From: an uncultured Gammaproteobacteria bacterium
Lineage (GTDB): Bacteria; Patescibacteriota; Microgenomatia; UBA10105; UBA927
Assembly: GCA_964553825.1 (NCBI GenBank)
Contig: CAZKLT010000002.1
Coordinates: forward strand, 2,068-66,067
Direction: 5' to 3'
DNA length: 64,000 bases
A program made the position numbers and the translations under genes. Position 1 is the stretch's first letter. Every line of letters starts with the position of its first letter. The notes beneath the pieces are model-generated. The model saw only the letters and a list, made by a program, of their open reading frames with translations. It did not search any database and had not been told where the DNA came from. Below, one piece after another: positions 1-52,623 of the stretch.

Positions 1-868
1 CCAGAAGGGCATCTGCCAGGCTGTTGCGCCCTGCCTCTGTGATGATTTCTTCCTCCGTGAATCGCCCGGTAATAGCCCGGCCCTGATTTCGCAGGTCGGT
101 GGCAATCACCGATTGAATCATCTGCGCTGGTGAACCGAAATCGCACAGCGCCTTCGCATTCGCCTGCGTGAGGTCATACTGGAATTCCACGTCCACATCG
201 TACGCCATCTTCACACCCGTGCCGCTGAGAATGGCATTAGTGATACTGGTCTCACACGCCGCAGACTGGCACGCAGGGTCCCCGGGATTAGGATTGGATT
301 CCAATACCGCGCGGTCAAGCGTGCGGTACCGTTGGGTTCCCGTGGGATACAGACGTGTCATATCCATCGGGAGCGCGTATACGCCGGGCTTGAGCAGGCG
401 GAATTCCTGATGGGCTTCATCGTAATTGCAATACAGACCCATGTAACCGCCTGGCACATTGGCGGCAACGTGCCCCTGTCCATCGGGACCCATATCCACG
501 AATTTCTGTGGAATGGTGCGATAGAGTCCCGGACCCAGAATTTCGTAGTCCGTCGAGCCATCGGCATTGTATTTCTTGACGAAAATGCCGATGCGGCCCG
601 CGGGGATGTTTGCCGCCGCCATCACCTCGATGGTGAAATTCTTGGTCTCATCCGCGTCATCGGCTTTCCACTGGGCAATGCTGTCACCCGCATATTTGTA
701 TTGCGAGTATTGTTGGGTGACGTCCATTGCCGCGGCGTCGTAGTTGGGATTCACGACACCGACGATTTGTCCGTTCGGAACGAAGTCCGGCGGCGCTTGA
801 GCACCGCATGACGTGACGAAAATCAACATCAGTAGAGCACCGAACACTTGCCAATTTCTTGTTTTCAT
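1..868 (-). CDS. SPFH/band-7-like lipoprotein, N-terminal part (gene continues beyond window start)
   Basis: ATG at 868-866 preceded by a GAGGT RBS. Signal peptide with lipobox (LIFVTSC). The reading frame stays open to position 1. Segment IQSVIATDLRNQGRAITGRFTEEEIITEAGRNSLADAL resembles the SPFH/band-7 core. This ORF is not in the supplied track because it runs off the window edge. Confidence 0.5.
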   Translation of the reverse strand, partial: MKTRNWQVFGALLMLIFVTSCGAQAPPDFVPNGQIVGVVNPNYDAAAMDVTQQYSQYKYAGDSIAQWKADDADETKNFTIEVMAAANIPAGRIGIFVKKYNADGSTDYEILGPGLYRTIPQKFVDMGPDGQGHVAANVPGGYMGLYCNYDEAHQEFRLLKPGVYALPMDMTRLYPTGTQRYRTLDRAVLESNPNPGDPACQSAACETSITNAILSGTGVKMAYDVDVEFQYDLTQANAKALCDFGSPAQMIQSVIATDLRNQGRAITGRFTEEEIITEAGRNSLADALL

Positions 869-1068
869 ACTATTTACCTCATCTTGGATTTCTTGTGTCA
901 CTGTTTCGGCTGACCGGGCCTACGTGTGGTGTGACGGTGGGTTGGGTTTTGTTGGTCTGGTATTTTCCTTTTCTCTTTTGGTTTTGAACTATTGGACTGC
1001 TGACAGGGCCAGAAAAAATAGCATTCTGTTCCTGTTTCGCAGCCCAAAACAACCGCCAACATTCCTTT

Positions 1069-1388
1069 CTCTTGAACTTGTTAACGTGCATCAGGAATGC
1101 ACGAACACACTCCCCGAGTATGGGAAGCGGTCATGCTCTCTTGATTCCTTTTTGTCTTTCTGCAAATTCGTCCTTTCGGACTCATCAGTACGGACACACA
1201 TCCGTAGTTTGCAGAGGAAAGGATACGGGTGGCTCAGGTGACGTCGGGTTCAATCGACATACATATACACTGAACGACCAGCATCCTCAGGGCCATACTG
1301 GCACCTGCATCGCCTGTCTCACGACGGCAATGTCCCCCGGAGGACCTTACGTGCATCCTCGAACTATTCACGTTCAAGAGTAGTTCCA
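1069..1388. repeat. 320-bp direct repeat, copy 1 (MITE-like or structured 3-prime-UTR element). Termini form a 9-bp inverted repeat: ctcttgaac ... gttcaagag.
   Basis: Base-for-base identical to 2853-3172, which I checked line by line. It begins 15 nt after the stop of the TPM gene on the minus strand. The terminal inverted repeats extend imperfectly to about 35 bp (ctcttgaac..ggaatgcacg / cgtgcatcc..gttcaagag). Confidence 0.9.
1158..1216 (-). ncRNA. hammerhead-ribozyme-like motif (type III topology), copy 1
   Basis: Minus-strand RNA: UCUGCAAA-C-UACGGA(UGUGUG)UCCGUA-CUGAUGA-GUCC(GAAA)GGAC-GAA-UUUGCAGA. All conserved core nucleotides CUGAUGA and GAA are present. Stem I is 6 bp, stem II is 4 bp with a GAAA tetraloop, and stem III is 8 bp. 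C17 sits at position 1207. Non-canonical: the 15.1-16.1 pair is U-A instead of A-U. Confidence 0.4.
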
Positions 1389-1402
1389 TAAAGCACAGGG
1401 GC

Positions 1403-2695
1403 TTATTTACGCGCGCGTTTGAAGAGGTTCACCGCTGGACGATCTTCGATTTTCGCGTCACGCAATTCGGCTAGCTGTGCCTTGAGGGTTTTGATGTCGG
1501 TGAGGATACCCGCTTCGGGACCGATATCATCGGCTTTGGTATACCGTAGTGTCACGGTCAGCGGTTTTCCTTCGAGCAGGCGGGATTGGGCTTGCAGATC
1601 GCGGACATCAGGATCCGTATCAGCCTCCGCCTGGGTGAAGCCCATCATCGGGTCGAGGAGTTCAGCAATTTCTGCCTCGGTCATTTCCAGCACGTTCTTG
1701 CTCGTGCCAATGAGTTTGAGGTAGATGACTTCCCACTGCTCTACTTTTTCCCGATAGGACAACGTGCGCACGCCTTCCTTCTCGTTGTCGAGGAGCATCT
1801 TCCTGTTGCCCATCACGAGTTCGATTTTGCGCATGGTTCTGCGGATCGCTTCGACAGCCGCCGTTTCGATGTCCGAATATTCCTGAAGACCGTTGGCCTT
1901 CATACGGCTGTAAAGGAGCGTTCCCTCAGGTTCGTCGCCGGCTAAGACCAAATTTGCCTGGCGGACGATTTCCCCGGTGCGGTCAGTGAGCACCTTGAGG
2001 TAGTTGAGTTCAGCGATGACTGGGACTCCGAATCGCAGGAACAGCCAACCTAAACCCACAAGGATTGCCAGCACGGCAAACCCGGCGAAGAAATTCCGTA
2101 CAGGCTTCATGTCCACGGGTGGACGCGGCGTTGCCGTAGGCTGGGATGTCGGCATGGCGAATTGCTGATTTGCGTTCGGATACGCCACGCGATATGCCTC
2201 GGCGAGCGCGATGACAATGCTCTCAGTAGCCTCATTGCTTGCCACGCCGTCGAGCACTAACTGCTTCACCGTCTCATCGGCAAGATGAATCGGCGTTGCT
2301 GAACCGAGCGTGCCGCCAACATCAAGCGTAACGGTCATTTCTCCGTCCACGATACCCACCGAGAGGAAGTAGCCGCTTTGGTGCAGCTCCATCTGCTCAA
2401 CGTTATCAATGGTCTGCGGAAACCGTGCCTGAGAGGCAATTTGCACCGCATCAATCCGGGCGTACCATTCATCCTCTGAGCTATATCGCTCATCGGATAG
2501 AAACAGGCCAACCTTGACCCCTTTGAGCGCAAGCGGCTTCATAGCCTCACACACTTGCTGCACATTGAGGGAATTGGTCTCATCCACGATGATGCCGTTA
2601 TCGCAACTGGCTTGCGCGTGAGCATTCGTGGGGACGACAGACGCTGTGATGACGAACATCAATACAAGCGTCAACAAACGACGAATAGCGTTCAT
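1403..2695 (-). CDS. membrane protein with an extracytoplasmic TPM-like (phosphatase-fold) domain, one TM helix and a cytoplasmic coiled domain
   Basis: 430 aa. AGGAGA RBS 8 nt upstream of the ATG at 2695. Signal peptide. Segment IIVDETNSLN...KVGLFLSDE...GYFLSVGIVDGEMTVTLDVGGTL fits the TPM pattern. TM helix FFAGFAVLAILVGLGWLFL. Confidence 0.5.
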   Translation of the reverse strand: MNAIRRLLTLVLMFVITASVVPTNAHAQASCDNGIIVDETNSLNVQQVCEAMKPLALKGVKVGLFLSDERYSSEDEWYARIDAVQIASQARFPQTIDNVEQMELHQSGYFLSVGIVDGEMTVTLDVGGTLGSATPIHLADETVKQLVLDGVASNEATESIVIALAEAYRVAYPNANQQFAMPTSQPTATPRPPVDMKPVRNFFAGFAVLAILVGLGWLFLRFGVPVIAELNYLKVLTDRTGEIVRQANLVLAGDEPEGTLLYSRMKANGLQEYSDIETAAVEAIRRTMRKIELVMGNRKMLLDNEKEGVRTLSYREKVEQWEVIYLKLIGTSKNVLEMTEAEIAELLDPMMGFTQAEADTDPDVRDLQAQSRLLEGKPLTVTLRYTKADDIGPEAGILTDIKTLKAQLAELRDAKIEDRPAVNLFKRARK

Positions 2696-2852
2696 GGGGA
2701 TTCATCTCCTGGGTAGTATTTTGGATAATTCCAGCGGTGGTCTCGGCATACCGAGTTTGCTCATCCCTCTTCTGACAAAATGGGACGATACGAAGATACA
2801 CAAGAAATGCTCTATCTTCATATCGTCCCACATCATCAGTCAATTATTTCTA

Positions 2853-3172
2853 CTCTTGAACTTGTTAACGTGCATCAGGAATGCACGAACACACTCCCCG
2901 AGTATGGGAAGCGGTCATGCTCTCTTGATTCCTTTTTGTCTTTCTGCAAATTCGTCCTTTCGGACTCATCAGTACGGACACACATCCGTAGTTTGCAGAG
3001 GAAAGGATACGGGTGGCTCAGGTGACGTCGGGTTCAATCGACATACATATACACTGAACGACCAGCATCCTCAGGGCCATACTGGCACCTGCATCGCCTG
3101 TCTCACGACGGCAATGTCCCCCGGAGGACCTTACGTGCATCCTCGAACTATTCACGTTCAAGAGTAGTTCCA
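2853..3172. repeat. 320-bp direct repeat, copy 2
   Basis: Identical to 1069-1388 with an offset of 1784 bp. It begins 15 nt after the pspA stop codon on the minus strand. It occupies the pspA-to-TPM intergenic region. Confidence 0.9.
2942..3000 (-). ncRNA. hammerhead-ribozyme-like motif, copy 2
   Basis: Identical sequence to copy 1 (offset 1784). The putative cleavage site C17 is at 2991. Confidence 0.4.
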
Positions 3173-3187
3173 ATGCAAATCTGCCTG

Positions 3188-3874
3188 CTATGCGCCCTTC
3201 TTGAGGGAGGCTTTCAGGGCGATGATATCGGCGCGCGCCTTTGCCACGGCATCGGTATTTCCCATGGCGTCGGAGATGGAGCCGACCACGCGCTTGTGGC
3301 GCTGATGTGCACGGCGATTCTTTTCCAGAATCTTCCCGCCGTAATCATCGAGCCCCTTGGTCTTACCAACCACTGCCTGAGCACCTTCCATGGCATCGGT
3401 GGACGCTTCGACCGCCTTGGTATCTTCCTTGGCTTCTTCGAGTTCCTTCACGCGCGCCACACCCTGCTCATACAGCATGGTGAGGAATTTGATGCATTCA
3501 TCATTGTCCGCGAACTCCGCTTCCTTGGCGGCGAGTCTCTCTTCGCGTTTCTTGATTTCTTCATCAAGTGCGTTGAATTGAACGCGGAGGAGCTCCGCAT
3601 CCTTGTCGTTGTTCTCGTCGTCGTCCAGCAGGAGAGCCTTCACATCACGGTCGAGCGCCGTTCTCTGCGGGCGGGCGGTCTTGAGGTATTTCCTCAGGTC
3701 GCCGATTGCAACGGTCACCGCATCCTGCACATTGTACATGCGCTCGCGCGCGCGATACAGGTCACGGACGCGCTGTTTGAGGACGGGGATGTCGAAAATT
3801 TCCATTAGAGCATCCATGCCCTCATTGAGGATGCCGAGCGAGAGCAGACGTGCCTTTTGGGCTGTTGTATCCAT
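3188..3874 (-). CDS. pspA: PspA/IM30 (Vipp1/LiaH) family membrane-stress protein
   Basis: 228 aa. Long charged coiled-coil. N-terminal MDALMEIFDIPVLKQRVRDLYRARERM and overall charge periodicity are typical of PspA. Confidence 0.6.
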   Translation of the reverse strand: MDTTAQKARLLSLGILNEGMDALMEIFDIPVLKQRVRDLYRARERMYNVQDAVTVAIGDLRKYLKTARPQRTALDRDVKALLLDDDENNDKDAELLRVQFNALDEEIKKREERLAAKEAEFADNDECIKFLTMLYEQGVARVKELEEAKEDTKAVEASTDAMEGAQAVVGKTKGLDDYGGKILEKNRRAHQRHKRVVGSISDAMGNTDAVAKARADIIALKASLKKGA

Positions 3875-4140
3875 ACGATTTTCTCACTTTCTACTAGTTG
3901 AATTGAAATTTTTTCGTGCTTTCGAACAAACTACGTACCTTGCCTTATTGGAACGGTTCACCTCCTGTGGTGTGAAAAAATGAAATTTTGAGACGCACAA
4001 ACGTAAGAGAAGAGCTCTCCTACCTCGCGTGCGTCCCAAACGCATGGAACCATACACTACTCTTGAGTTTTAAAGAGCGATGCTTCCAACGGAGTGAAAA
4101 TTATAGGGCGCAAATGCCCCGCACCTTCATACAGCGGAAA

Positions 4141-4190
4141 CTGGAGGATTGTAGCATTTTTTTAGGGAACAGTCAAAAACTATGGGGTAT
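4141..4190 (-). promoter_or_regulatory. sigma70-like promoter for pspA: TTGACT, 17-nt spacer, TACAAT, with a shared upstream motif TAATACCCCATAG
   Basis: The minus strand reads TTAATACCCCATAGTTTTTGACT gttccctaaaaaaatgc TACAAT. The leader to the pspA ATG is about 260 nt. Confidence 0.5.
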
Positions 4191-4198
4191 TAAAACGG

Positions 4199-4245
4199 TA
4201 CCAGACGGCGTAGCACGAAAACATAACATGTGACTACGCCATCTG
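4199..4245 (-). terminator. putative intrinsic terminator after the 4298-5089 gene
   Basis: 13-bp stem (ccagacggcgtag / ctacgccatctgg, one mismatch) with a 20-nt loop. On the minus strand it is followed by taccgtttta. Confidence 0.35.
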
Positions 4246-4297
4246 GATTTGGCGGATAATCTGCAGGATACCGTTTTTATTGGAGGGCGGGAGCGCA

Positions 4298-5089
4298 TCA
4301 CTCCATGTTGAATTCATTCTCCACGAACACCTCGTCCCAGAAATCCATGATGCCATCATTGACTTTCCAGGCGATGAATCCATACACGATGAGTACCAGA
4401 ATGGCGAGGAGAAAAATTCCCAGTTGCGCGAGAATCTTCACCCAATCACCGTCTCCCGAGGAGGAACTGGAGCGCGAACTGCGCCGGGTTGTGGACGATG
4501 TCCTGTTGCTTGACACGGGCATGGGAACGGGCATCGCCATCACGTTACTGGAGCGGGAACTTGCCTTGGCTTTGGATGATGAGCGGGTCGATGCGCGGTC
4601 CGACAACGACGGTTTTTGACCCGTCTGGAACGGATTCCAGCCCTGACCGTTGATGTTAATCAGGGTCGTGTTGGTCGGCCGCCTTGACCGCTCCTGAAAC
4701 TCATCCCAATGTTCATAATCCGGCCGGGCGCTCCCAAACTTGCGCTTGCTGTAGGTAACGAAAATCCCCCACACCACAATGGCTGACGCCACGTTGAAGC
4801 CGGGAACCCAGACCATCCACCAGCGGTAGGGACCAATAAATGCGTCTGCCATGTCGCGCATGCCGGGCAGAAATGCATCCAGCCCCAGAAGCGTTCCGAG
4901 TGTCAGGATCACCAGCGCTACCACCGTGTTGACATACTTGGTGGCTTGAACAAGGTAGTACATCACGGACGATCCGCCTTCGTCCTTGATGACTTCCGAC
5001 TCGGTCTGCACGGGGCCGTGCAGACTGTCGCTCAGCAGAATCAGTACGATTGCGCCGAGCACGGGGAAAAGATAACCATATTCCATTGT
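4298..5089 (-). CDS. hypothetical membrane protein with a Ser/Arg-rich low-complexity linker
   Basis: ATG (MEYGYLF) with an AGGAG RBS 8 nt upstream. Several TM segments. The long upstream extension in the ORF track lacks an RBS. Confidence 0.6.
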   Translation of the reverse strand, partial: TMEYGYLFPVLGAIVLILLSDSLHGPVQTESEVIKDEGGSSVMYYLVQATKYVNTVVALVILTLGTLLGLDAFLPGMRDMADAFIGPYRWWMVWVPGFNVASAIVVWGIFVTYSKRKFGSARPDYEHWDEFQERSRRPTNTTLININGQGWNPFQTGQKPSLSDRASTRSSSKAKASSRSSNVMAMPVPMPVSSNRTSSTTRRSSRSSSSSGDGDWVKILAQLGIFLLAILVLIVYGFIAWKVNDGIMDFWDEVFVENEFNME

Positions 5090-5254
5090 ATAACACTCCT
5101 TGAGTAGTATATTTTGACTGTCTTGAGGGCAGCCATCTGTTCGCGAATCGCGAAGCATATTGCCGCTCTCAAGAGATATCCTGCACATTATTAATGAGCA
5201 AATTACTTGTCTTACCATTGCAACTATCGGCCGCAATCAGTCGCGTGCATACGG

Positions 5255-5300
5255 CAAAAGAAGTCCCGGAATTATACTTTAAATGAGGCTGAGAGTCAAA
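5255..5300 (-). promoter_or_regulatory. sigma70-like promoter: TTGACT, 17-nt spacer, TATAAT, with the same upstream motif as the pspA promoter
   Basis: The minus strand reads ATAATACCCCATAGTTTTGACT ctcagcctcatttaaag TATAAT. It drives the 4298-5089 gene. Confidence 0.5.
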
Positions 5301-5319
5301 ACTATGGGGTATTATCCCG

Positions 5320-6600
5320 CTACTTTATGGCTGATACAATCCGCTCGATGGCTACTACAAACGCGGCAGTGCGCATGTCCGTCTTGTATCGCTTCGATGC
5401 ATCCCACACGTCGCTTGCTGCCTTGTTCATCTTTTCTTTGAGTCTGGCGTTCACATCATCTTTTGTCCACCGTTCCCCCTTGAGGTTTTGTTCCCACTCA
5501 AAGCAGGAGACCGTCACGCCACCGGAATTAGCAAGAATATCGGGTATCACCACGACACCCTTCTTATATAATGTAGCGTCAGCTTCAGGCGTCGTGGGGC
5601 CATTTGCCATTTCCAGGACGATTTTTGCCTGTATGCTCTTGGCGTTTTCCGCAGTCAGTACGTTTTCCAGGGCGGAGGGCACAAGAATATCGACAGGAAG
5701 CTCAAGAAGCGCTTCGTTTGATATTTGTCTCCCCTGCTTCACATCGCATACGGTGCCTGAGCAGTAGCATCCGGCAAGCATGCCCGTTTTCTTCTTGCAT
5801 TGGAGTGTCGTCACGGGATCCAAACCGTCAGGCACCAACACGCCACCACGGCTGTCTGAAACGGCTATTACTTTTACACCTGCTTCAACCAAAAATTTTG
5901 CCACATTAAATCCCACATTCCCGAACCCCTGAACGGCGGCGGTAAGACCGTCCTTTTTTCCTAACTTCGCCAAAATCGCCTGAAGCACAAACAATCCGCC
6001 TTTTCCTGTTGCTTCTTCGCGCCCCTCGCTCCCGCCATCTGTGAGTAGTTTCCCCGTAAACGTCGCCCTGAGCGTTTCGTCGGCCGGCATTCCCTTCTCC
6101 TTCTGAACAGCCATAAACTCATCGACCATCCATCCCATGATGGTGCCATTGGTATTTACGTCCGGCGCGGGCACATCTTTTTGCGGCCCGATATGGTCGG
6201 CAATCGCCCGGACATACCCTCGCGATAGTCGTTCAAGCTCACCCTCGGAAAGTGTTTTGGGATCCACAACAACGCCACCCTTCCCCCCGCCGAGCGGTAA
6301 ATCCGCAACGGCGCATTTCATCGCCATCCAGAAGGCAAGTGCCTTAACCTCATCCATGGATACCTGCTGGTGAAACCGGATGCCGCCTTTATACGGTCCC
6401 CGTGCATTATTGTATTGCACCCGGTATCCTTGAAATGTCTTGGTTGTCCCATCGTCCATGACGACGGGTATTTCCACATTGAGTATCCGCTGAGGCTCCT
6501 GCAGCTTAGCTACATCCGCCTGAATGGAAGGATCAGGCAGAAGTGCCGCTGCACGCTTGAGCTGGGTCAGTGCGCTTTCAAATGGATTTGCTGGTTGCAT
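5320..6600 (-). CDS. gdhA: NAD(P)-specific glutamate dehydrogenase
   Basis: 426 aa. KGGIRFH ... GGGKGG motifs. GGAGG RBS. Confidence 0.9.
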   Translation of the reverse strand: MQPANPFESALTQLKRAAALLPDPSIQADVAKLQEPQRILNVEIPVVMDDGTTKTFQGYRVQYNNARGPYKGGIRFHQQVSMDEVKALAFWMAMKCAVADLPLGGGKGGVVVDPKTLSEGELERLSRGYVRAIADHIGPQKDVPAPDVNTNGTIMGWMVDEFMAVQKEKGMPADETLRATFTGKLLTDGGSEGREEATGKGGLFVLQAILAKLGKKDGLTAAVQGFGNVGFNVAKFLVEAGVKVIAVSDSRGGVLVPDGLDPVTTLQCKKKTGMLAGCYCSGTVCDVKQGRQISNEALLELPVDILVPSALENVLTAENAKSIQAKIVLEMANGPTTPEADATLYKKGVVVIPDILANSGGVTVSCFEWEQNLKGERWTKDDVNARLKEKMNKAASDVWDASKRYKTDMRTAAFVVAIERIVSAIK

Positions 6601-48451: not shown

Positions 48452-48587
48452 AGGCGGGTGAGGCAGGCTTTGAACCTGCGTTCTTGGTTTTGGAGACCAA
48501 GGTCCTTCCAACTGAACGACTCACCCAAAAGGAAGAGAAGGATACGATGCAGTGTGAACCTGACGGCTCAAGTGATTCTCTCTTCCA

Positions 48588-48666
48588 TGGAGGCGGCGAG
48601 GTAGGACTTGAACCTACTCCCTCCGGCTTTGGGTACCGGCGCTCATCCTAATGAGCCATCTCGCCC
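48588..48666 (-). tRNA. tRNA-like gene, probable anticodon CCA (Trp), with irregular acceptor/T-stem register and C33
   Basis: Minus strand: GGCGAGA-UG-GCUC(AUUAGGAU)GAGC-G-CCGGU(ACCCAAA)GCCGG-AGGGA-GUAGG(UUCAAGU)CCUAC-CUCGCCGCCUCCA. Clear D, anticodon and T arms. The acceptor pairing is off by one. Confidence 0.5.
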
Positions 48667-50671: not shown

Positions 50672-50744
50672 TGGTTGCGGGGCCGGGAATCGCACCCGGT
50701 CTAGAAGATTATGAGCCTTCTGTGCGGCTTTACACTACCCCGCG
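50672..50744 (-). tRNA. tRNA with anticodon CAU and a C1-A72 mismatch (initiator-like), non-canonical D and T loops
   Basis: CGCGGGG-UA-GUGU(AAAGCC)GCAC-A-GAAGG(CUCAUAA)UCUUC-UAGA-CCGGG(UGCGAUU)CCCGG-CCCCGCA-A-CCA. 73 nt, CCA encoded. The D loop lacks GG. The T loop has UGCG instead of UUCG. Confidence 0.55.
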
Positions 50745-50847
50745 GTTCATAAAGAACGAATTTCATTATAGCGTGTTTGGCGCTCAAATCAAAGCTGCCC
50801 TTTGCTCTTCCTTCCAACTGGACTATACTTACTCAAGAACTTCTTGT

Positions 50848-52545
50848 ATGAAAAAGTACTGGCACCTTGTCATATTGGGCATTATCTTTTGTGTTGCCCT
50901 GTTTCTCCGACTTTGGCACCTTCCTCAAATTCCCGTCGGGCTCCATGGTGATGAAGCAAGTATCGGCTACAACGCATACTCACTGTTAAAAACCGGCCGT
51001 GATCAAAACGGTATCCGGTACCCTCTTGCTATTGACCAATTCGGCGACTTTCGACCTGCGGGATACCACTATCTTGATATTCCATTCGTAAAACTCTTCG
51101 GACTCAACGCGCTTGCGGTTCGACTTCCGTCTGCGATTCTTGGTGCCGCGTCTGTGGTGCTTTTTTACTTTCTCACCTCCGCGATCTTCGGCAAAAAACC
51201 GGTCGGTCTGATTGCGGCTTTTTTTCTGACCATTTCCCCGTGGCACATAAACATTTCCCGGGCCACCAGTGAGGGGGTTATCGCAGGCTTCTTCATTCTT
51301 TTGGGAATCCTTTTGGTGTTTCATGCACTGACCCGGCCAGGTCGAACGTCTCACCTGCTTATCGGAGGCTTCCTCTCGCTGTTTGTCAGCATCCTGTTCT
51401 ACCACAGTGCGCGTCTGTTCGTGCCTGTTTTTCTCATACCGTTTCTCGGAATCATGTTCCTGGCTTACAAACCGCCGGTGAAACGAAGCATCGGGGCCGT
51501 CATGCTTCTCGTTCTCTTCATCGCCGCACTCGCCGGAGTTATGAAGTCAAGCCAGGGAGCAGCGCGACCCAGCACGGTGAGCATCTTCAATATCCCGGGT
51601 GGTGATCGCGAAATTTTCCAGCAAATCGGTGAAGATGGAACACGGCCTGCCACCATAACACGAATACTGCATAACAAAGCACTCTTTTACGGCAGGTTAT
51701 TTCTTGCGTCGTATTTCTGGCATTTCAACGGTGAATTTCTTTTTAATTCAACGGGCATGCCCATACGATATAAGATCCCATGGAGCGCCAATATGTACCT
51801 CACAGACCTCCCGCTTTTGCTTCTGGGCGCTGCTGCACTTCTTCTGGACGGATTACGGAAACGGAAATACCTGCTCCTCATCCCGCTGGCGTGGCTGACG
51901 ATTGGCGCCCTTCCTGCGGGGCTGACATGGGAAGATCTCCCCAATGTGCAACGGGCTAGTCTTATGATTCCGGCGCTCCTGATGATTTCAGCGTATGGAC
52001 TGTTTGAGCTCCTTGCCGTATTTACCCAGAAAACGCTTCAGAAGCTGATCCTGCTGGGATATGGCGCATTTCTTACCTACGGATTTATTCTTTTTTACCA
52101 CAATTACTTCTACCATCTCCCCCGTCATGAACCGTGGCACAGAAGCGCCGCCGTGCCGCAACTACTCTCCCGGATAGCAGACCTTAAGAAAACGCACGGT
52201 AATGCTCCCGTTATCATGACCACCGAAAGCAACAATAACTTCATCTTCTACCTTTTCTATACGGCATTTGACCCGGCCACATTCCAGGCGATGGGATCAC
52301 CCACAGAGAAAGATAATATGCTTTTTGACGGCATCCAATACACGGTCAGACCATGTCCATTGGGAAACAATTCAGAAGCACCGGATGAAGAAGAAGACAA
52401 TATAGGCATCCTTTTCGTCAATAAAGCAACCTGCAAAACTCCGGTTAATGTTGATGTGTTGGAGACGATACGGTGGACCGATGGTGTCCCCGCCTTTCTT
52501 ATTGTGAAGGTAAACCCCCTGTGGGTAGCGCCGAAGACAAAATAA
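50848..52545 (+). CDS. GT39/GT83-like (ArnT/PMT family) membrane glycosyltransferase
   Basis: ATG 50848 (MKKYWHLVIL). More than 10 TM helices. Conserved HGDEA motif. The upstream part of the supplied ORF overlaps the tRNA and looks spurious. Confidence 0.65.
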   Translation: MKKYWHLVILGIIFCVALFLRLWHLPQIPVGLHGDEASIGYNAYSLLKTGRDQNGIRYPLAIDQFGDFRPAGYHYLDIPFVKLFGLNALAVRLPSAILGAASVVLFYFLTSAIFGKKPVGLIAAFFLTISPWHINISRATSEGVIAGFFILLGILLVFHALTRPGRTSHLLIGGFLSLFVSILFYHSARLFVPVFLIPFLGIMFLAYKPPVKRSIGAVMLLVLFIAALAGVMKSSQGAARPSTVSIFNIPGGDREIFQQIGEDGTRPATITRILHNKALFYGRLFLASYFWHFNGEFLFNSTGMPIRYKIPWSANMYLTDLPLLLLGAAALLLDGLRKRKYLLLIPLAWLTIGALPAGLTWEDLPNVQRASLMIPALLMISAYGLFELLAVFTQKTLQKLILLGYGAFLTYGFILFYHNYFYHLPRHEPWHRSAAVPQLLSRIADLKKTHGNAPVIMTTESNNNFIFYLFYTAFDPATFQAMGSPTEKDNMLFDGIQYTVRPCPLGNNSEAPDEEEDNIGILFVNKATCKTPVNVDVLETIRWTDGVPAFLIVKVNPLWVAPKTK

Positions 52546-52550
52546 GTGGG

Positions 52551-52623
52551 TGCCAGCGGCAGGGATCGAACCTGCGACCTATGCCTTATGAAGACACCGC
52601 TACTACCACTGAGCTACGCTGGC
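52551..52623 (-). tRNA. tRNA-Met (CAU), elongator-type
   Basis: GCCAGCG-UA-GCUC(AGUGGUAG)UAGC-G-GUGUC(UUCAUAA)GGCAU-AGGUC-GCAGG(UUCGAUC)CCUGC-CGCUGGC-A. Perfect 7-bp acceptor stem. G1-C72. Confidence 0.85.

Follow-up and report, generated by a model that had tools for sequence, protein, structure and literature searches.

Hammerhead ribozymes are abundant in bacteria, where their roles are, to our knowledge, mostly unknown. In synthetic biology, ribozyme insulators such as RiboJ combine a self-cleaving ribozyme with a hairpin in front of a gene and thus standardise the 5' end of the downstream message. Natural hammerheads that flank genes in polycistronic RNAs have been shown to cleave in vitro and in vivo (PMC3088659). 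Among the phage shock protein (Psp) systems, an operon of PspA, a protein composed of a TPM domain, a transmembrane segment (TM) and a coiled coil (YdjH), and a Band-7 protein is a described architecture, known as the ydjFGHI type of B. subtilis (PMC11237479). Here, we describe a tricistronic operon (ORF-A, ORF-B and ORF-C; ORF, open reading frame) at the start of a 64,000-nt stretch of contig CAZKLT010000002.1 (assembly GCA_964553825.1), hereafter referred to as the window. Both of its intergenic spacers are occupied by a structured RNA element with a hammerhead core, and we consider it on balance probable that this is a divergent PspA-like/TPM-like/SPFH-like membrane operon whose hammerheads cut the tricistronic transcript into three mRNAs.

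An original prediction for this region had described three genes on one strand, a sigma70-like promoter with a leader of about 260 nt, and intercistronic repeats that add an "unusual RNA layer". The genes lie where it had placed them, and promoter and leader were recovered as well (Table 1). The repeats are real and far stronger than had been implied. They are also structured, and the hammerhead ribozyme, which is their main feature, had been missed.

Results

Two identical copies of a structured RNA element separate the three genes

The spacer repeats at positions 1069-1388 and 2853-3172 are identical at 320 of 320 positions (100%). Each copy begins ~15 nt past the stop codon of the upstream gene, and no third copy is present in the 64-kb window. 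A 12-bp helix, P1, closes the element, which further comprises a 5' domain of ~175 nt with several hairpins, a type III hammerhead, a 3' hairpin and an invariant single-stranded GCACNUUAACA motif. Folding gave z-scores of -5.6 for the sense and -2.9 for the antisense orientation. A search of Rfam over positions 1-5400 at E <= 1 returned the hammerhead and no other family. Two further interpretations of the repeat were rejected. A 51-amino-acid (aa) ORF inside the element (1389-1234 and 3173-3018) has no start codon in relatives and is interrupted there by frame-breaking indels, and an intrinsic terminator is contradicted by the missing U-tract after P1.

Table 1 Coordinates of the operon, its RNA elements and its control regions in the window.
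Feature	Position	Strand	Remarks
Structured RNA element, copy 1	2850..3172	-	P1 5' strand 3167-3156, P1 3' strand 2861-2850; ~175-nt 5' domain after the P1 5' strand
Structured RNA element, copy 2	1069..1388	-	P1 5' strand 1383-1372, P1 3' strand 1077-1069
Hammerhead type III core, copy 1	2944..2998	-	Rfam RF00008; predicted cleavage between 2991 and 2990
Hammerhead type III core, copy 2	1160..1214	-	Rfam RF00008; predicted cleavage between 1207 and 1206
Lone P1 3' strand in leader: CGCUCUUUAAAACUCAAGAGUAG, equivalent to GCACNUUAACA..UUCAAGAGUAG	4057..4079	-	3'-terminal motif of the element only
Promoter of the ORF-A/B/C operon	4148..4176	-	-35 TTGACT, 17-nt spacer, TG-extended -10 TACAAT
5' leader, ~267 nt	3875..4141	-	Conserved in four lineages
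Conserved stem-loop GGUGCGGGGCAUUUGCGCC, then UAUAAUUUU	4105..4125	-	15-35 nt past the predicted start
Long 5'-UTR hairpin of the leader, GGGACGCACGC...GUGCGUCUC	3990..4037	-	Counterparts upstream of ORF-B and ORF-C
5'-UTR hairpin before ORF-B	2772..2839	-	Inverted repeat I1; kept in L001, L002, L008
5'-UTR hairpin before ORF-C, GGGCUGCGAAACAGG...CUGUCAGCAGUCC	994..1045	-	Also kept in L018, L019
Conserved motif ..TTTTAATACCCCATAG.. adjoining the -35 on the upstream side	4177..4201	-	Repeat family D2 and alignment; second copy 5300-5323 upstream of the ORF-U promoter
ORF-A, 228 aa, all-helical, PspA/Vipp1-like (ESCRT-III-type) predicted fold	3188..3874	-	Structure model; no match to a hidden Markov model (HMM)
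ORF-B, 430 aa: signal peptide, alpha/beta ectodomain (maybe TPM-like), P/T-rich linker, one TM, helical cytoplasmic domain	1403..2695	-	
ORF-C lipoprotein, divergent SPFH/Band_7-related family; 289 aa seen, ~390 expected	2..868	-	Runs off the window
ORF-U, membrane protein without assigned family, syntenic, 262 aa from ATG	4298..5086	-	Own promoter 5299-5271

Both copies of the element contain a type III hammerhead core in mRNA orientation

Infernal matched the Rfam family RF00008 (Hammerhead_3) in both copies with 42.7 bits (E = 5e-7), and its alignment contains the three-way junction, in which stems I and II are loop-closed and stem III is open. The core reads CUGCAAA-C17/U-ACGGAUGUGUGUCCGU-A-CUGAUGA-GUCCGAAAGGAC-GAA-UUUGCAG, where the slash marks the cleavage position and the two inner segments are, in full, ACGGAU-GUGU-GUCCGU and GUCC-GAAA-GGAC. 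In relatives (loci numbered from L001), the hammerhead was also matched in L001, L002, L004, L008 and L016. No variant departs from the CUGAUGA and GAA motifs. At residue 17, the window has C, and relatives have U or A.

The core is canonical except for the 15.1-16.1 pair, which is U-A and not A-U in the window. U15.1-A16.1 is shared by L001/L002, L008, L016 and L017, and the canonical A-U is found in L004, L019 and L022; the pair thus flips by compensatory change. The other 11 core residues are invariant among lineages that show 20-35% divergence elsewhere in the element. The distant loci L019-L021 and L022/L023 likewise have the element upstream of ORF-C, with canonical A15.1-U16.1 hammerheads at the same place. 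A natural U15.1-A16.1 hammerhead variant is active, albeit less efficient (PMC3088659). The ribozyme itself makes up ~55 of the element's 320 nt, and the ~265 nt outside it are conserved with covariation.

One deviating allele was observed. In the spacer-1 element of L001 (10860-10880), ~24 nt are missing, among them the cleavage site and the 5' strand of stem III; the stretch is intact in L003 (2870-2916), which comes from another sample of the same species. The gap is due either to an error in assembly or to a natural allele whose ribozyme is dead.

Gene order and RNA fold are conserved across distant relatives

Synteny was a check that the original prediction had named, and the gene order is conserved in every relative recovered. 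The order U-A-B-C is found in L001, L002 and L003, whose proteins are 74-78% identical to those of the window, the order A-B-C in L008 and L013, and fragments of the A-B-C arrangement in L016, L017, L018 and L004. A distant groundwater locus, L019, shows the order B-A-C with an ORF-B of 1083 aa; its ORF-A and ORF-B are 26% (E = 7e-14) and 29% (E = 4e-42) identical to those of the window. The element is present in every spacer between ORF-A and ORF-B and between ORF-B and ORF-C that was recovered (L001-L004, L008, L013 and L016-L018). Many short contigs stop inside it, as a repeat would lead one to expect. L077, a more remote member of the family, lacks the element and has a spacer of 62 nt.

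To assess the fold, nine variants were scored against a structure comprising P1, the 5'-domain hairpins, a long-range helix, the three hammerhead stems and the 3' hairpin. Pairing was retained in 84.5% of the cells compared to 37-46% in slid controls, over which the tested structure has an advantage, being derived from the window copy. Changes on both sides of a pair were found for 27 pairs, compared to 6-14 in the slid controls, and none of 500 shuffles reached the observed values. For the hammerhead junction, helices 9-12 pair in 96-100% of the cells. Independently of this scoring, P1 and the hammerhead junction appear in the unconstrained minimum-free-energy folds of all six loci folded (L002, L008, L016, L017, L019 and L022). 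L017 and L019 carry large insertions in stem I, and L019 is devoid of the 3' hairpin. The loop I motif GAUGUGUG and the GCACNUUAACA motif are invariant across variants. A pseudoknot between loop I (GUGUGU) and AUGCAC was considered, for which one-sided changes are all that speaks in favour; we retain it as a hypothesis.

Pattern scans of viral, metagenome and GTDB species-representative genome collections yielded no true copy outside this operon. Among the genome contigs, a gapped pattern had L008 as its sole true match, at the operon locus, and its matches L006 and L007 are due to chance. The same holds for a viral contig that matched the 5' motif of the element (L005) and for all four pattern matches in metagenome contigs. 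The pattern of stem I plus core had no match in viral contigs. A generic hammerhead core is common there (53 loci), and none of these loci has the scaffold; they match in the core only, some of them sharing stem II.

The two copies are identical within the window, L002 and L008, and orthologous copies are 77-79% identical between genomes. This points to a concerted evolution of the copies, by gene conversion or by selection for matching halves. L001 and L003 represent a haplotype with a different 5' half in spacer 1.

Lone halves of the closing helix flank the operon

The leader of the operon contains only the 3'-terminal motif of the element, in the window as well as in L001, L004, L008 and L019. 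Conversely, the P1 5' strand (..ACUCUUGAAC/G..) is the only part of the element present in the trailer, behind the last gene, of L008, L016, L017, L018, L019 and L022. As the window ends within ORF-C, its own trailer lies outside our view. The half-site 8-mers occur nowhere else in the 64-kb window. Taken together, the lone P1 strands in the leader and, in relatives, the trailer mean that every cistron is preceded by a P1 3' strand and followed by a P1 5' strand that is complementary to it.

At the innermost P1 pair, C:G is found in the window, L001/L002, L004, L008, L016 and L017 and G:C in L018, L019 and L022, and the readable half-sites of trailer and leader share the state of the element in the same genome. 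Folding of whole leaders against the element halves with RNAduplex gave uninformative full-length duplexes that were no better than shuffles, and the motif and covariation tables were used instead.

Past ORF-C, L017 (1754-3226) contains small genes with spacers of 515-567 nt that harbor long perfect hairpins and the P1 5'-strand motif and no hammerhead. These spacers may be ribozyme-less versions of the cassette.

Promoter and leader of the operon

The operon promoter is of the sigma70 type and matches the consensus at 10 of 12 positions, plus the extended -10, in a promoter scan. Its TTGACT and TACAAT hexamers are kept in three relatives (L001, L004 and L008). From its position, transcription is predicted to start near 4141, giving the leader of ~267 nt, for which we obtained a folding z-score of -2.8. 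The conserved stem-loop close to the predicted start could serve as a 5' stabiliser or as an attenuator. A long hairpin is found in all three 5' untranslated regions (UTRs). An invariant block resembling a Shine-Dalgarno sequence, CAGGAGGUGAACCGUUCCA (3949-3967, minus strand), precedes the start of ORF-A by ~75-95 nt and is followed by no usable start codon; L016 and L022 have comparable GGAGGUGAAC blocks in the 5' UTR of ORF-C. The block could be a site for ribosome standby or pausing.

Upstream of the operon, the promoter of ORF-U matches the consensus at 11 of 12 positions. A motif (..ATAATACCCCATAG(T)TTTTGACT, minus strand) precedes the promoters of both ORF-A and ORF-U and is also kept in L001 and L008. 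It is a candidate regulatory site, which suggests that a common regulator might act on both promoters, or that ORF-U might be co-regulated with the operon.

The PspA, TPM and SPFH labels of the three proteins are supported to different degrees

The original prediction had named the proteins PspA, TPM-like and SPFH-like and had proposed a check by HMM searches. This check gave no direct match for any of the three labels: PspA_IM30, TPM_phosphatase and Band_7 matched none of the three proteins, either in Pfam (whole proteins and isolated domains, with more distant homologues scanned as well) or in NCBIfam, where no informative model matched ORF-A, ORF-B or ORF-C. The sole family match among PHROGs was phrog_200 ("lipoprotein") for ORF-C. 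The families are extremely rare. Among 5.8 billion protein clusters searched, ORF-A and ORF-B were each represented by three and ORF-C by five. An assignment to a known defence system was rejected, since PADLOC returned nothing meaningful.

The PspA label of ORF-A has no Pfam or NCBIfam match behind it, but its predicted fold is closest to Vipp1/PspA. PspA/IM30 (PF04012) was not matched by ORF-A or its homologues at E <= 0.1-1, and a profile built from five ORF-A homologues did not reach PspA or Vipp1 among the PDB sequences, returning coiled-coil noise only. The AlphaFold model consists of helices spanning residues 3-26, 29-83, 87-164, 181-197 and 207-227, of which the hairpin 29-83/87-164 is modelled with a pLDDT (predicted local distance difference test) of 80-95. 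Among the ten best matches of a fold search of the PDB, seven are Vipp1 or PspA, with Foldseek E-values of only ~1e-2 and coiled coils being promiscuous in such matches. The model superposes to E. coli PspA 1-144 (4WHE) with a TM-score of 0.74 (target-normalised) and a root mean square deviation of 2.0 Å.

For ORF-B, TPM_phosphatase (PF04536) was not matched even with the ectodomain isolated, and the TPM label retains weak fold matches only, next to the signal peptide and TM architecture that is indeed seen. The model is poor (pLDDT 46.8), and the ectodomain follows the order beta-alpha-beta-alpha-beta-beta-alpha-alpha. Weak Foldseek matches of this low-confidence model include the TPM-domain structures 2KW7, 5ANP and 4OA3 (E 0.5-1.4). 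Its overall architecture is similar to that of YdjH.

ORF-C begins with MKTRNWQVFGALLMLIFVTSC, which contains a lipobox within a lipoprotein signal (...LIFVTSC). Band_7 (PF01145) was matched neither by ORF-C, which is partial at the window edge, nor by its close homologues, but the SPFH label gains support from the wider family. An exhaustive profile search of 1.84 billion proteins yielded 31 representatives, and 17 of the 28 family members scanned match Band_7 (best 3.9e-12). ORF-C belongs to this Band_7-related family with E = 3e-46, and the best PDB matches of the family profile are stomatin and QmcA.

Taken together, the PspA-TPM-SPFH reading is reasonable as a functional analogy, in which the SPFH part is supported, the PspA part plausible and the TPM part weak. 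The association of Psp proteins with band-7 and TPM partners, on which the original prediction had drawn, has its parallel in the described PspA-TPM(YdjH)-Band-7 operons (PMC11237479).

Surroundings of the operon

In relatives, a PhdYeFM antitoxin gene pair lies between the glutamate dehydrogenase gene and ORF-U (L001:8010-8551, L002:845-1123); the window is without this insert. In L008 (5167-8000), L017 (6362-7003) and L019 (11803-15590), the operon is situated a few kb upstream of a tRNA gene that directly adjoins a downstream 23S rRNA gene; a 16S gene was not seen between them. The 23S gene of L019 carries a group I intron-like insert, with a LAGLIDADG gene after it. The minus strand of the window also encodes a neighbouring pair of tRNA-Trp(CCA) genes that differ from each other, as well as two genes for tRNA-Met(CAT) (48453-48666 and 50672-52623).

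Discussion

The element is a conserved, structured and operon-specific RNA that carries an intact hammerhead core on the mRNA strand and shows covariation. Cleavage in vivo and its consequences we infer. Self-cleavage after C17 (at 2991/2990 and 1207/1206) would convert the transcript into three mRNAs. The upstream products would then carry the folded 5' domain and a 2',3'-cyclic phosphate at their 3' ends, and the downstream products would start with a 5'-OH, followed by the hammerhead stems and the UTR hairpin. As a consequence, decay or stability and translation of the three messages would be uncoupled. P1 would shield the ribozyme fold from the coding flanks and may re-pair within each mRNA after cleavage, as the complementary ends of a cistron would be able to pair.

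Several points weigh against the processing of the transcript into three mRNAs. The self-cleavage is predicted from the sequence, and the 42.7 bits of the core lie below the RF00008 gathering score of 48.5. Judging from the described variant, the U15.1-A16.1 pair lowers activity, so the ribozyme of the window clade may be slow or inactive. Even after cleavage, the 7-bp stem III and the 12-bp P1 could hold the products together, so that the mRNAs might stay joined. The comparison comprises ~9 variants from ~6 lineages only, with alignment and structure derived in part from the window sequence. Finally, the copy identity in short-read metagenome-assembled genomes may partly be an assembly effect, which is countered by the differing flanks of the copies and by the identity seen in three independent genomes.

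The most serious alternative is a hammerhead that is dead or nearly so in the window clade, leaving an element that acts through its structure only, be it as an insulating spacer, a protein-binding scaffold, or a 5'-3' pairing partner that controls translation or decay. The lowered activity of the swapped pair and the score under the gathering threshold would agree with this, as would the ~265 of 320 nt that are conserved with covariation outside the ribozyme and the P1 half-sites in leader and trailer, where the ribozyme is absent. However, a dead ribozyme does not account well for 11 other core residues that stay invariant while the rest of the element diverges by 20-35%, nor for a 15.1-16.1 pairing that is kept through a compensatory flip. 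Distant relatives retain a canonical hammerhead in the same place, and the natural U-A variant cleaves (PMC3088659). We regard a purely structural element as rather unlikely.

Quite unlikely, in our view, is that the element joins message ends as a module of two parts. Once cleavage has occurred, every cistron would pair its 3' end (the 5' half of the element or the trailer half-site) with its own 5' end (the 3' half of the element or the leader half-site), generating pseudo-circular mRNAs. Under this model, the halves around ORF-B could rebuild a nicked hammerhead, whose religation would yield a covalently circular, translatable mRNA.

In a retrozyme-like circle, the hammerheads would free a 1784-nt ORF-B unit with 5'-OH and 2',3'-cyclic-phosphate ends. 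The element halves would reassemble via P1 and stem III, and ligation, be it by the ribozyme or by RtcB, would close the unit to a circular mRNA. Such a circle would fit the 100% identical direct repeats around one gene in three genomes, with orthologous copies at only 77-79%, and the complementarity of the element halves in P1 and stem III; the idea was proposed for clustered bacterial hammerheads in PMC3088659, yet its authors detected no circles. In addition, L019 has a single element, before ORF-C, ORF-A and ORF-C have half-sites only, and gene conversion can account for the copy identity. The circle likewise appears quite unlikely to us.

A selfish or mobile repeat (similar to miniature inverted-repeat transposable elements or repetitive extragenic palindromic sequences) or a recent local duplication with no operon role might explain the perfect identity of the two copies and the contigs of other samples that break inside the repeat, but is highly improbable given a copy number of only two at each locus, the lack of any other copy across 64 kb, a representative genome (L008) with the element at this locus only, the same spacers being occupied in lineages whose proteins are just 26-33% identical, helices that covary structurally, and no terminal inverted repeats or target-site duplications.

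A further possibility, related to the joining of message ends and likewise quite unlikely in our view, is that the conserved ~175-nt 5' domain abutting stem III is a sensor that gates cleavage, which would make the element a natural allosteric hammerhead in an envelope-stress operon.

A ribozyme fixed in one chromosomal operon is a rare context. Our analysis provides a concrete hypothesis, with exact cleavage coordinates, for a ribozyme-driven operon processing that is perhaps coupled to 5'-3' end pairing. It adds a candidate for a new structured-RNA family and a conserved natural clade of U15.1-A16.1 hammerheads, and it brings the PspA-TPM-SPFH theme to a lineage that is very divergent and rarely sampled. 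Intercistronic hammerheads and PspA-TPM-Band-7 operons are already known. What is new here is a large conserved scaffold that has stayed fixed in one chromosomal operon despite deep divergence, together with the concerted copies and the covarying half-sites around every cistron. A full-text literature search for "hammerhead" together with "PspA" retrieved nothing relevant on hammerhead cassettes in Psp systems.

Like the Psp operons of the ydjFGHI type, the locus encodes a helical protein with a PspA-like predicted fold, a secreted or membrane protein, perhaps TPM-like, whose TM leads into a helical or coiled-coil tail, and an SPFH-related protein. It differs from them in proteins too divergent for the Pfam models, in an SPFH member that is a lipoprotein, and in having no YdjG-like gene.

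The clustered bacterial and prophage hammerheads (Perreault et al. 2011, PMC3088659) also reside on the coding strand between genes, where cleavage would give gene-length mRNAs, and they include the same U15.1-A16.1 core variant, documented there as weakly active. In contrast to them, the hammerhead described here is embedded in a conserved scaffold of ~320 nt, which is closed by a 12-bp helix and additionally has a 5' domain of ~175 nt and a 3' motif that does not vary. It belongs to one chromosomal operon across distant lineages and not to variable prophage genes, its copies evolve in concert, and lone halves of its closing helix are found in leader and trailer. Retrozymes and viroid-like circular RNAs likewise have direct repeats with type III hammerheads around a releasable unit with ligatable ends, whereas here the repeats are part of a bacterial chromosomal protein-coding operon, the copies are not dispersed, and there is no sign of circles or retrotransposition. 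Finally, RiboJ has the same arrangement, in which a ribozyme and an adjacent hairpin separate a gene from the promoter or cistron upstream of it; the element described here is natural and far larger, and would shape the 3' end of the upstream message as well.

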